From: Bacteroidales bacterium
Lineage (GTDB): Bacteria; Bacteroidota; Bacteroidia; Bacteroidales; ML635J-15
Reading direction: 5' to 3'
DNA length: 57,627 bases
NCBI GenBank assembly: GCA_046546095.1
Contig: JBKGYK010000004.1
Location: 1-57,627 of the forward strand
In this document: positions 18,219 through 34,968 of the stretch, piece by piece
How positions within the stretch are numbered: position 1 is the first letter of the stretch
Layout: each line of letters opens with the position of its first letter
Notes under the pieces: model-generated
What the model was told of the DNA's origin: nothing
The model's input: only the letters and a program-made list of their open reading frames with translations
Databases searched by the model: none
Position numbers and translations under genes: made by a program

Positions 18219-18249
18219 TTTGACAGATAAAAATAAAAGCTTATTTTTG
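18219..18249 (+). promoter_or_regulatory. Housekeeping promoter for rpsU-xerC-hpf
   Basis: TTTG 18219-18222, 19-nt spacer, TATTTTTG 18242-18249. Confidence 0.75.
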
Positions 18250-18285
18250 CAGCCCTTTAATTTAATTGAAATAAAAGATAAACAT

Positions 18286-18477
18286 ATGATTATTGTACCA
18301 GTAAAAGAAGGCGAAAACATCGACAGAGCATTGAAACGTTTCAAACGCAAATTTGAAAAAACCGGTGTTATCAAAGAATTGCGCGATCGTCAGGCATATA
18401 CAAAACCATCTATGCAGCGTCGTCAGCAGATGATCCACGCCAAATATATTCAGCAACTTAAAGATCAGGCCAATTAA
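18286..18477 (+). CDS. rpsU: 30S ribosomal protein bS21
   Basis: 'MIIVPVKEGENIDRALKRFKRKFEKTG...YTKPS'; real start at ATG 18286. Confidence 0.96.
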   Translation: MIIVPVKEGENIDRALKRFKRKFEKTGVIKELRDRQAYTKPSMQRRQQMIHAKYIQQLKDQAN

Positions 18478-18539
18478 AATCTTTCGTACCTGAAACCTTT
18501 GCATCCACTTTACGTAATATTTTATAAGTGAAGTTGACT

Positions 18540-19439
18540 ATGCAAAAGGACGCGTACCTGAAGTTTTTAGAGTTTGAGAAGCGGTATTCTTTACATACCC
18601 TTAAGGCATATAAAAAAGATGTAGAGCAATTTTATTTTTATTTCTCTATTTCTGAAGAAAATGAAACCCAGGCATTGATGGAGGTGAGCTCCGGAGATAT
18701 TCGTGCCTGGATTGTTCATTTAATGAGCTCTGTTAGTCCTCGAACTGTCAACAGAAAACTCACAAGCATAAAAGGGTTTTATCGCTATCTGCAACAAAAT
18801 GATGTCCTTAAGATAAACCCAGCTGACAGAGTGCAGTCTCCCAAAATGAATAAAAAACTGCCTGAATTTATGCCGGAAAAACCAATGGAAAAACTTTACA
18901 CCTTGTTTGAAAAGCATGAGGAAACCTTTTCGGCAATCAGGGACTTTCTGTTGATTGAATTGTTGTATACTACGGGTATCCGTCAGGCCGAACTTATGGG
19001 GATAAAACACGGAGATATTGACTGGCAGGCAAATCAGATCAAAGTGACAGGTAAAGGCAATAAGGAGCGCCTGATACCCGTATCCAAAGACATTACAAAA
19101 ACCGTTAAATCCTATATTCATGCAAAACAAAATGAGGGGTTTTCTTGTAATCTTTATGATATGTTAATTGTTACCAATTCAGGCCATAAATTGTACCCAT
19201 CATTCGTTTATAATACAGTAAACTTTTATTTGTCTCAGGTTAGTACAATGAAAAAAAGAAGTCCGCATACACTCAGACACAGTTTTGCAACACATATGCT
19301 TAATCGCGGTGCTGATATCAATGCCATCAAGGAGCTTCTCGGACATTCAAGCCTTGCTGCCACACAGGTATACACACATAACAGTTTCGAACAATTAAAA
19401 AAAATATATAAACAGGCTCATCCCAGAGCCGGCATTTAA
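18540..19439 (+). CDS. xerC: Tyrosine recombinase XerC/XerD (chromosome dimer resolution)
   Basis: Catalytic residues R (TGIRQAE), K (GKGNKER), HxxR (PHTLRH), H (LLGHSS), Y (TQVYTH); conserved Bacteroidota position between rpsU and hpf. Alternative GTG start at 18528. Confidence 0.85.
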   Translation: MQKDAYLKFLEFEKRYSLHTLKAYKKDVEQFYFYFSISEENETQALMEVSSGDIRAWIVHLMSSVSPRTVNRKLTSIKGFYRYLQQNDVLKINPADRVQSPKMNKKLPEFMPEKPMEKLYTLFEKHEETFSAIRDFLLIELLYTTGIRQAELMGIKHGDIDWQANQIKVTGKGNKERLIPVSKDITKTVKSYIHAKQNEGFSCNLYDMLIVTNSGHKLYPSFVYNTVNFYLSQVSTMKKRSPHTLRHSFATHMLNRGADINAIKELLGHSSLAATQVYTHNSFEQLKKIYKQAHPRAGI

Positions 19440-19443
19440 TTTC

Positions 19444-19451
19444 AAGGAGGT
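19444..19451 (+). promoter_or_regulatory. Strong Shine-Dalgarno sequence for hpf
   Basis: AAGGAGGT followed by a 6-nt spacer (aataat) and the ATG at 19458. Confidence 0.8.
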
Positions 19452-19457
19452 AATAAT

Positions 19458-19763
19458 ATGAACATTAATGTGCACTCATTAAATTTCGATGCAGACAAAA
19501 AATTGGTTGACTTTATCAATCAGAAAATGGAAAAGCTCACACAGGTAGCACCAGACATCATCGCTGCAGATGTGACGCTGAAAGTGGAAAATGTTGACGA
19601 CCTTGAAAATAAGTTCGTCGAGGTATTAATTGACATCCCCCGCAAAGATGGTGTATTTACCAAAAAGCAGGCCAAAACCTTCGAGCAGGCCGTTGATCTC
19701 AACTACCAGGCACTGCGCAGACAACTCAAAAAATTCAAAGAAAAACAACGTCTGAAAAAATAA
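19458..19763 (+). CDS. hpf: Ribosome hibernation promoting factor HPF/RaiA (short form)
   Basis: 'MNINVHSLNFDADKKLVDFINQKMEKL', 'KKQAKTFEQAVD...LRRQLKKFKEK'. Confidence 0.9.
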   Translation: MNINVHSLNFDADKKLVDFINQKMEKLTQVAPDIIAADVTLKVENVDDLENKFVEVLIDIPRKDGVFTKKQAKTFEQAVDLNYQALRRQLKKFKEKQRLKK

Positions 19764-19775
19764 TTCCAAATATTT

Positions 19776-19806
19776 TTTGGTAGTAAAATAAAACTGTATA
19801 TATTTG
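19776..19806 (+). promoter_or_regulatory. Housekeeping promoter for the tRNA-tuf operon
   Basis: TTTG 19776-19779, 19-nt spacer, TATATTTG 19799-19806. Confidence 0.8.
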
Positions 19807-19859: not shown

Positions 19860-19936
19860 GCCGATGTAGCTCAGCTGGTCAGAGCAGCTGATTTGTAATC
19901 AGCAGGTCGGGGGTTCGAATCCGTCCATCGGCTCCA
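19860..19936 (+). tRNA. tRNA-Thr (TGT), CCA encoded
   Basis: GCCGATG/CATCGGC acceptor; GCTGA-TTTGTAA-TCAGC anticodon arm; one G-G mismatch in the T-stem. Confidence 0.93.
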
Positions 19937-33120: not shown

Positions 33121-34968
33121 TTACCGGTCGTTCTTCTCTAAGAACTGGTGCAATACAATCAATACCCATAGCCTGTTGTAAAGATAATCTGTTCCCCTTC
33201 GGTAATTATCAACCATGGACTTTACTTTATCATAGTTAACTACCTGATGCTTCTCAATAATTTCTTTTGACAGAAAATCATCAATCAGGTAACTCAAATC
33301 TTCTTTTAACCATTGCTTTAATGGAAGAGCAAACCCCCACTTTGGCCTGTTAAAAAGCTCTCTGGGCACCTGATCATACAAGGTTTCCTTTAAAAGATAT
33401 TTTTTTGTGTTTTTGAATATCTTGAGTTTGGGATCAAGGTTGAGCGCAAATTCAACAATATTATGATCAAGCAATGGAACTCGGGCTTCCATGCTGTATT
33501 TCATGGTGGCACGGTCAAGTTTTACCAGCAGATCATCTTTGAGATAATAGCGCAAATCAAAAACAGCCTGATTCTCTCCCGGGGTCAGCTCTCTGACAAA
33601 ATAACTGTAGTCTTCAAGCAAATTAATTTCATCTGCATGGTGATGGAGAATTATATCGGCTATTTCAGCTTGTGAGAAAAAATATTGCTCCTGAGAAAAA
33701 ATATGTGATTTGAGTTGTTCCTTCCTTGAAAATTCAAACAAATGAGATGCCCGCTTATGCTTGTTTGACATCCGTGATAAACCTGCTTTTATTGGAAGTC
33801 TGAGACCCCTGATGAGGGGATTTGATAAACGTTTGGCCCAGGTATAGGCGCCATAGCCATGAAATAGCTCATCACCACCATCACCAGACAAAACCATGCT
33901 GACATCTTTGCTGGCAAATCTGGCCAGCAGCATAGTGGGTATGGCCGATGAATCTGCATAAGGCTCGTCATAATTTTCGACAATGTCAGGAATCATTTCC
34001 CGGGCCTCTTTCTGGGAAATGATATGCTCATGATGATTTGTTCCCAGATAGTCCGCAACTTTCTTAGCATAGCTTGCCTCATTGTATTCGCTCTCTTTAA
34101 ATCCAATGGAAAAGCTGTTCAGCTTCCGGTTTGTATGTTTCTGTGCAAGAGCGGTTACCAGACTGGAATCAATGCCACCGCTGAGAAAACTGCCAAAAGG
34201 AACATCACTCATCAGCCTCATTTTAACGGAATCTTCAATAAGCTCACTAAGTCTGTTCCTGGCATCCTTCTCATCTTTGATAAGATTCCTCCTGATGGCT
34301 CCTTCTATCATCCAGTATGCCTCTATGCGCAAGCCATTGTCATCAATAATTCCAAAATGCCCCGACGGAAATTTCCGTATGTTGCGGTAAATGGTATTGG
34401 GCTCAGGAATGTATCCAAGATGCAAAAATTCATGAATGGCTACCTTGTTTATCTCTTTTTTTGACTGTATTCGGTGAATCTGCATCAGAGCCTTCAGCTC
34501 AGAAGCAAAAGCAAAATGTTCACCGTCCCAGAAATAAAACAAAGGTTTAATGCCCAGTCTGTCGCGGAAAAGATACATTTCCTTGTTCTGCTTGTCGTAT
34601 ATGGCGATAGCAAACTGACCGTTAAGCTTATTGACAAATGTTACTCCCCAGGCTTCGAAAGCTTCAATGACAACCTCAGTATCACTGCTTGTCTTCAGGT
34701 CAATATTAAGCTCTGCCGCAATTTCCCTGTAATTGAAAACTTCTCCGTTATAGACACATGTATAGCGCCGTGAATGTGACTCCATGGGTTGATTGGCATT
34801 ATCCGAAAGATCCAATATGCTCAGACGCCGGTGAGCCAATCCTGCCTTGCTGTTGATGTAAAACCCATCAGCGTCAGGACCCCTGTGTTCAAGGATATGA
34901 GCCATGGATTTGAGCTCCTTTTCAGAAACAAATCCATCAGATGCATAATAACCAGCAATTCCACACAT
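33121..34968 (-). CDS. asnB: Asparagine synthase (glutamine-hydrolysing) family amidotransferase
   Basis: N-terminal 'MCGIAG', 'HRGPD', 'RDRLGIKPL', 'FLSGGIDSS', 'SGDGGDE', 'EARVPLLD'. Confidence 0.93.
   Translation of the reverse strand: MCGIAGYYASDGFVSEKELKSMAHILEHRGPDADGFYINSKAGLAHRRLSILDLSDNANQPMESHSRRYTCVYNGEVFNYREIAAELNIDLKTSSDTEVVIEAFEAWGVTFVNKLNGQFAIAIYDKQNKEMYLFRDRLGIKPLFYFWDGEHFAFASELKALMQIHRIQSKKEINKVAIHEFLHLGYIPEPNTIYRNIRKFPSGHFGIIDDNGLRIEAYWMIEGAIRRNLIKDEKDARNRLSELIEDSVKMRLMSDVPFGSFLSGGIDSSLVTALAQKHTNRKLNSFSIGFKESEYNEASYAKKVADYLGTNHHEHIISQKEAREMIPDIVENYDEPYADSSAIPTMLLARFASKDVSMVLSGDGGDELFHGYGAYTWAKRLSNPLIRGLRLPIKAGLSRMSNKHKRASHLFEFSRKEQLKSHIFSQEQYFFSQAEIADIILHHHADEINLLEDYSYFVRELTPGENQAVFDLRYYLKDDLLVKLDRATMKYSMEARVPLLDHNIVEFALNLDPKLKIFKNTKKYLLKETLYDQVPRELFNRPKWGFALPLKQWLKEDLSYLIDDFLSKEIIEKHQVVNYDKVKSMVDNYRRGTDYLYNRLWVLIVLHQFLEKNDR

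Follow-up and report, generated by a model that had tools for sequence, protein, structure and literature searches.

A strong Shine-Dalgarno sequence conserved in front of the ribosome hibernation gene hpf in Bacteroidales: a candidate target of ribosomes with a free anti-Shine-Dalgarno

Ribosomes of the Bacteroidia are known to hide the anti-Shine-Dalgarno (anti-SD) sequence of their 16S rRNA, and in Flavobacterium johnsoniae the Shine-Dalgarno (SD) sequence of rpsU senses ribosomes that lack bS21. Here we describe a strong SD in front of hpf, which encodes a ribosome hibernation factor, in a Bacteroidales bacterium. The window, that is, the whole stretch of 57,627 nt that was analysed (JBKGYK010000004.1), is one of the contigs of a 2.94-Mb, 120-contig metagenome-assembled genome (MAG) without a 16S gene. 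Its plus strand carries the gene run rpsU-xerC-hpf. The first gene, rpsU (18286..18477), encodes bS21 (63 aa; PF01165 and TIGR00030, both above their cut-offs). The second (18540..19439) encodes a 299-aa tyrosine recombinase of the XerC/XerD family with the domains PF00589 and PF02899; its best NCBIfam match is XerC, with 309.8 bits under a cut-off of 335, and its start was placed at the ATG at 18540, the GTG at 18528 being the alternative. The recombinase stop codon, TAA at 19437..19439, is followed after 18 nt by the ATG (19458-19460) of hpf (19458..19763), which encodes a short ribosome hibernation factor of the HPF/YfiA family of 101 aa. This protein matches PF02482 over residues 3-98 with 63.1 bits (cut-off 23.7) and TIGR00741 with 38.5 bits, just below the cut-off of 40.9, and its homologues align from residue 1 on. 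Within the 18-nt gap lies the SD element AAGGAGGT (19444..19451; AAGGAGGU as RNA), separated from the hpf ATG by the 6-nt spacer aataat (19452..19457).

Two promoter-like elements of the Bacteroidota type, read by eye and of putative function, flank this gene run on the same strand. One (TTTG, 19 nt, TAttTTTG; 18219..18249) precedes rpsU, and the other (TTTG, 19 nt, TAtaTTTG; 19776..19806) lies downstream of hpf and before the tRNA-tuf cluster, whose tRNAs start at 19860. A sigma-70-style promoter scan marked the same places (18220-18247 and 19777-19804). Because these elements flank the run, and because the interval from rpsU to hpf contained no promoter-like site by eye or by the scan and no terminator, rpsU, xerC and hpf probably form one transcription unit, the end of which is likely marked by the second element.

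The strength of an SD was calculated as its predicted pairing energy (dG, in kcal/mol) to the 16S tail, over 2209 genes obtained by simple gene calling. The tail was taken from a complete genome of the same genus and is canonical (GGAACACCUCCUUUCU-3′); its CCUCC core is also found in the 16S tail of another genome of the order. The hpf element is complementary to ACCUCCUU in this tail and pairs with it over 8 consecutive Watson-Crick pairs, which at a spacing of 6 nt bears out the description, in a first-pass annotation of the window, of an SD at ideal distance from hpf. With a dG of -12.6 it ranks 5th among the 2209 genes, so that the finding of many equally strong SDs, which that annotation had named as a refutation, did not materialise. 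Only two of the 49 called genes in the window reach a dG of -7 or lower, hpf (-12.6) and asnB (-9.2). These energies agreed with the earlier reading by eye that rpsU, tuf, secE, nusG, rplK/A/J/L and rpoB/C have no SD; the A/T-rich leader of rpsU reaches a dG of -1.6 and that of the recombinase gene -2.3. As a separate observation, asnB (asparagine synthase, 615 aa; 33121-34968, minus strand) is preceded by the SD-like sequence GAGGAG.

The genome as a whole has the start context of SD-less Bacteroidota, with A at position -3, an A-rich stretch from -11 to -14 and 9-15% G at the SD position, and AAGGAGGT is depleted in it (53 copies against the ~82 expected). Yet AGGAGG-type cores precede ~1% of its genes, including those of bL9, bS18 and uL5, and ~3% of genes reach a dG of -9 or lower. 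Thus, the chance expectation of less than 0.01 proposed at first sight holds under a model of composition alone but understates reality: given the frequency of such SDs, ~0.1 genes as strong as hpf are expected in a window of 49 genes. A chance origin of the hpf SD is nevertheless ruled out by its rank, by the depletion of the 8-mer and by its conservation in ~90% of the order.

This conservation, which the first-pass annotation had asked for, was found at several scales. In the 80 loci retrieved with the HPF of the window, the order rpsU-recombinase-hpf was essentially universal, and nearly every locus of the Bacteroidales type carried a strong SD at a distance of 4-8 nt from the hpf ATG. An even sampling of the Bacteroidales covered 301 genomes of more than 140 families, and hpf was found in 278 of them; among 80 of these genomes, dG was -7 or lower in 77 and -9 or lower in 75. 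The latter threshold was reached by 28 of the 39 most divergent hpf homologues, giving 103/119 for the combined sample against a background of ~3% of genes, and by 71 of 80 loci from Parabacteroides, Tannerella, Bacteroides and Phocaeicola. Phocaeicola vulgatus ATCC 8482, Parabacteroides distasonis, P. goldsteinii, Tannerella forsythia and Bacteroides fluxus all carry the hpf SD. Outside the order it was present in 12 of 30 genomes of Flavobacteriales proper, in none of 30 Cytophagales and in none of 15 genomes from a small order around locus L079, though the recombinase stop codon lies 13-16 nt before the ATG in that order.

The sequence of the element is not fixed. The paired segment shifts along the tail complement (AGAAAGGAG, AAAGGAGGT, AGGAGGT, GGAGGTG) and mostly comprises 5-9 bp in the relatives, while GGAG occurs in 103/103 SD-positive leaders at an aligned spacing of 6.1 ± 1.4 nt, and G at position -9 reaches 72% in these leaders versus ~14% genome-wide. 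A match that slides while its spacing stays canonical indicates that selection acts on pairing with rRNA. Judged from these sequences, the hpf motif is a genuine SD, maintained because its pairing with the 16S 3′ tail is under selection, and it probably controls HPF output at translation.

One further locus, L020, comes from a MAG labelled Chlorobiota and shows the same rpsU-recombinase-hpf order with the SD TGGAGG (-9.3); either this MAG is mislabelled or the feature reaches beyond the class Bacteroidia. Where Cytophagales and many Flavobacteriales lack an SD in the hpf leader (L226, L243, L266, L270, L285 and others), a shared motif near TT(H)AACCNTTAAA sits ~12-20 nt before the hpf ATG, where the Bacteroidales have the SD. 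It may be a different leader signal.

The proximity of the recombinase stop codon raises the question of what the SD owes to this junction. The first-pass annotation had mentioned in passing that the SD could couple hpf to xerC termination, and this coupling turned out to be a serious and close rival to any control by specialised ribosomes, although we give it a minority chance. Ribosomes that finish the xerC-like ORF 18 nt upstream would stay on the mRNA, be captured by the SD and restart at the hpf AUG, and SDs would serve internal cistrons only. The geometry suits such re-initiation, since 156 of 185 Bacteroidales loci have at most 25 nt from the upstream stop to the hpf ATG and the two ORFs overlap in Parabacteroides. 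However, a looser junction does not cost the locus its SD: where 26-150 nt separate the upstream stop codon from the hpf ATG, 23 of 26 loci retain it, among them a Prolixibacteraceae clade in which the recombinase ends ~56 nt earlier and one locus with a promoter-like box of its own. Nor does a tight junction suffice, as the order with a 13-16 nt junction (0/15) and the Cytophagales (0/30) have no SD. Retention at longer spacing, together with that order, rules out that the SD is a by-product of the tight xerC-hpf junction. Also, the SD and the AUG of hpf were unpaired in all predicted folds tried, which leaves no structure around the SD for an upstream ribosome to open; a model in which upstream translation opens a hairpin that hides the SD is therefore not supported.

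Two groups of loci depart from the usual layout of this junction. In Parabacteroides (L316-L346) and in L173, L174, L184 and L191, the recombinase frame runs on across the SD (..KKEGG..) and ends shortly before hpf or a few codons inside it, the SD being there also coding sequence. In Prolixibacteraceae/Tangfeifania loci (L037, L040, L042, L044, L049, L053, L056, L057, L059, L060, L064 and L066), 56-86 nt lie between the end of the recombinase ORF and hpf; the usual C-terminus of the recombinase has been lost in this clade, while the SD and a hairpin upstream of it have been retained and are now intergenic.

This hairpin is a second conserved element of the locus. In the window it is predicted to form from GGCUC-AUCCCA-GAGCC (19415..19430, plus strand) within the last codons of the recombinase (AHPRA). 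Its consensus, GCYC, a 6-nt loop and GRGC within the last five recombinase codons, was found in most fetched loci, 16-24 nt before the hpf ATG. The third positions of the Ala and Arg codons covary (C-G 40, C-A 0, U-A 89, U-G 14; Fisher 7e-24), 85% of cells being paired, compared with 11-51% for a slid partner, and the covariation score was reached in 0 of 500 shuffles. Genome GC bias was ruled out as the source of this signal, given that the third position of the adjacent His codon showed no association (p = 0.53 and 1.0). In the clade in which this stretch has become non-coding, the hairpin is kept by a compensatory change (GUCC/GGGC).

GGA-rich motifs are common targets of proteins and small RNAs (sRNAs), and the hairpin, which is so widespread and is kept where it is non-coding, could be part of such a site. 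The purine block and the hairpin would then bind a regulatory protein, an sRNA or an RNase and set the stability of hpf mRNA or its processing from the rpsU operon transcript. We hold this non-ribosomal role for improbable. Orders that lack the hpf SD have the hairpin too, which means that hairpin and SD are separable, and the purine block varies in the way that a sliding complementarity to the 16S tail at canonical spacing predicts, as a fixed ligand site would not. No Rfam family matched the hpf leader, even at E <= 5.

SDs in the Bacteroidales are not confined to hpf, nor mainly to rpsU and rpsR as the first-pass annotation had assumed. The published set includes rpsR, rplI, rplE, rplF and rplW (Jha et al. 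2021, PMC7797042), and our analysis likewise found SDs on several of these genes. In the same 30 Bacteroidales genomes, a dG of -7 or lower was reached by hpf in 27/30, rplI in 26/30, rpsR in 21/30 and rpsF in 0/29. The values for rplI and rpsR reproduce the published frequencies of 0.83 and 0.66 (Jha et al.), which validates the method. Accordingly, hpf bears an SD as consistently as rplI, the top SD gene known in the order, and more consistently than rpsR. All genes identified so far with a conserved SD in the order (rpsR, rplI, rplE and others, and now hpf) are related to the ribosome. The rpsF-rpsR-rplI run of the genome under study (minus strand) offers an example of how these SDs are placed: rpsF has none, rpsR has AAGGAGG at a 3-nt junction and rplI has AAAGGAGG at a 15-nt junction.

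The placement of these SDs speaks for re-initiation. Twelve of the 13 genes with the strongest SDs in this genome start within 18 nt of an upstream same-strand stop codon or overlap it, compared with a background of ~34%. Strong SDs (dG of -12 or lower) are in excess at tight junctions, where the start lies within ~30 nt of the upstream stop (12 against 4 in mock windows), and show no excess at leading genes (2 against 1-3). In the same vein, the first cistron rpsF carries no SD (0/29), in contrast to the downstream rpsR and rplI. An enrichment at tight junctions only resembles the SD usage of haloarchaea, in which SDs are inert for de novo initiation and aid termination-reinitiation (Huber et al. 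2019, PMC6728339), and is undescribed for Bacteroidales. Against this, the same authors judged SDs to be unused in Bacteroidetes (PMC6728339), and in F. johnsoniae the internal SD of prfB acts on elongating ribosomes only when bS21 is mutated (PMC10798248), so that translating ribosomes, too, seem to conceal the anti-SD. The likeness to the haloarchaeal system extends to the position of the SD at an internal cistron near the upstream stop and to its being of no use de novo, but the hpf SD lies in the spacer instead of inside the upstream ORF and is kept when the junction loosens.

The reading that we favour, with a probability of roughly 0.4, is that the hpf SD is read by ribosomes whose anti-SD has been freed through loss of bS21, bS18 or bS6. 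In this mechanism, normal ribosomes would hide the anti-SD in a pocket formed by bS21, bS18 and bS6. Co-transcription with rpsU would make hpf mRNA abundant during growth, but complete ribosomes, blind to the SD, would translate it poorly. Ribosomes with a free anti-SD, either without bS21, bS18 or bS6 or still immature, would initiate efficiently at the hpf SD, and HPF output would rise as they accumulate. A hibernation factor encoded on a growth-phase ribosomal protein transcript needs to be uncoupled from it at translation, and an SD that complete ribosomes ignore would supply this uncoupling. The response of hpf to a free anti-SD, the identity of the gating pocket protein in Bacteroidales and the physiological trigger are parts of this scheme that we infer.

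The pocket itself is well documented in F. johnsoniae, where ribosomes hide the 16S tail between bS21, bS18 and bS6 (PMC7797042) and pocket mutations in any of the three proteins free it (PMC13000457). An engineered 7-nt SD, AGGAGGU, on a tuf′-gfp reporter lowered expression in wild-type F. johnsoniae, and expression rose more than 2-fold with bS21-deltaC and ~1.7-fold on depletion of bS21 (PMC9976891). The sequestering residues of the three proteins are present in the genome under study: bS21 has S42, Y54 and I55, bS18 matches 10 of 12 contact residues (a set that includes Y32, K37, F50 and N56), and bS6, at 120 aa, has a C-terminal extension past the 90-aa Pfam domain. Gating is also favoured by the independence of the hpf SD from the tight junction, as it is kept in loose loci and absent from the other order with a tight one.

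Several findings weigh against it. The rpsU SDs of the autoregulatory type are extended (9-13 bp, below -13 kcal/mol) and the hpf SD, with 8 bp and -12.6, is not; in vitro, stimulation by bS21-poor ribosomes needs an extended SD, and an mRNA with a weak SD was not stimulated (McNutt et al., PMC9976891). No Bacteroidales is known to have ribosomes without bS21 or bS18 (PMC13000457). The hpf SDs of Flavobacteriales show no association with an rpsU SD. Strong SDs in this genome exceed the mock windows at tight junctions only, and the known Bacteroidales SD genes are all internal cistrons, with first cistrons (rpsF and rpsU) devoid of an SD, a pattern that gating does not predict. Gating and re-initiation are not mutually exclusive.

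The first-pass interpretation as a whole is partly supported; as to which protein would act as the gate, bS21, as first proposed, is a plausible candidate. The idea current in the field for Bacteroidales, itself unproven, concerns ribosomes lacking bS18 and bS6 rather than bS21 (PMC13000457), and in this order bS18 with bS6 appears at least as likely to be the gate as bS21.

A simpler possibility is that Bacteroidales ribosomes are only partly blind and that a strong SD always raises HPF synthesis, with no gating at all. This would fit the higher frequency of SDs in Bacteroidales (~1.7% of genes, versus 0.2% in Flavobacteriales; PMC7797042) and the incompletely resolved 3′ tail in the ribosome structure of P. 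gingivalis (PMC12123416), as well as the co-occurrence of hpf and rplI SDs by lineage, which a lineage-wide property of the ribosome predicts. Nevertheless, the sequestering residues are conserved here and leading genes show no SD enrichment over the mock windows. SDs are also said, in papers citing earlier studies, not to stimulate expression in Prevotella bryantii and Bacteroides. Such constitutive enhancement thus has a slim chance of being the explanation.

The Flavobacteriales bear on the relation between the different SDs. Across 30 genomes, the hpf SD co-occurs with an rplI SD (9/12 versus 2/18; Fisher p = 0.0012, without phylogenetic correction) and is independent of the rpsU SD (3 genomes with both, 9 with hpf only and 3 with rpsU only); no rpsR SD was found in these 30 genomes. 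This independence, and the genomes with both, rule out that an SD moved within the operon from rpsU to hpf.

Set beside the extended-SD autoregulation of F. johnsoniae rpsU (Jha 2021, McNutt 2023, Arpin 2026), the hpf system shares a strong SD in an SD-less Bacteroidia genome and a tail hidden by bS21, bS18 and bS6. It also lies in the rpsU operon, and in F. johnsoniae a reporter with a 7-nt SD reacts when bS21 is lost. It differs in the length and energy of the SD (8-9 bp and about -12 to -14 kcal/mol, versus 9-13 bp and -14 to -21 for rpsU), in that rpsU itself has no SD here, and in that HPF is not a pocket protein, so that control would be exerted on another gene and would not be autoregulatory. 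The closest relatives of the hpf SD are those of rpsR, rplI, rplE, rplF and rplW in Bacteroidales (Jha 2021), which share its order, energy range, location on a downstream cistron just after a stop codon and similar frequencies, besides the company that it keeps with the rplI SD in Flavobacteriales; unlike them, hpf is not a ribosomal protein gene, and for that class bS18-poor ribosomes have been hypothesised as the readers.

Elsewhere in bacteria, hpf/raiA is controlled mainly at transcription, by stress and stationary-phase regulators. The protein family is the same, as is the need for more HPF when growth stops, but the hpf gene described here shares its unit with a growth-phase ribosomal protein gene and its conserved signal is translational.

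Neither hpf nor hibernation is mentioned in the context of SDs in the main texts of the Fredrick-laboratory papers PMC7797042, PMC9976891, PMC13000453 and PMC13000457 or in the supplements of PMC9976891, and wider literature searches found no report of an hpf SD. As late as 2026, rpsU is given as the sole SD gene of F. johnsoniae, and rpsR is the only one mentioned for Bacteroidales (PMC13000453, PMC13000457). The hpf SD is real, selected and, it seems, unreported so far. The Bacteroidales are the order of the main human gut commensals, in which only ribosomal protein genes have been listed as SD-bearing; hpf is a concrete SD target beyond these, with hibernation and starvation survival as read-out and genetically tractable strains at hand. 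If gating is true, control by specialised ribosomes extends from autoregulation to another gene and links ribosome composition to dormancy. If coupling is true, Bacteroidales share the haloarchaeal way of using SDs, against the current view that SDs go unused in them.

In a wider reading, hpf would be the first target of pocket-deficient ribosomes outside the ribosomal protein genes. How the ribosome pool is composed would then directly determine, through this SD, how much HPF is present across the Bacteroidales, including the gut genera Bacteroides, Phocaeicola and Parabacteroides, and hpf would join rplI, rpsR and a few more in a small regulon of SD genes that responds to incomplete ribosomes. 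As it stands, we regard this reading as rather unlikely. Three Flavobacteriales genomes (L258, L259 and L260) have, within one operon, an extended SD on rpsU (-16 to -17.6) and an SD on hpf (-10 to -13), and they have an rplI SD as well; they would be good natural test cases for such a regulon.

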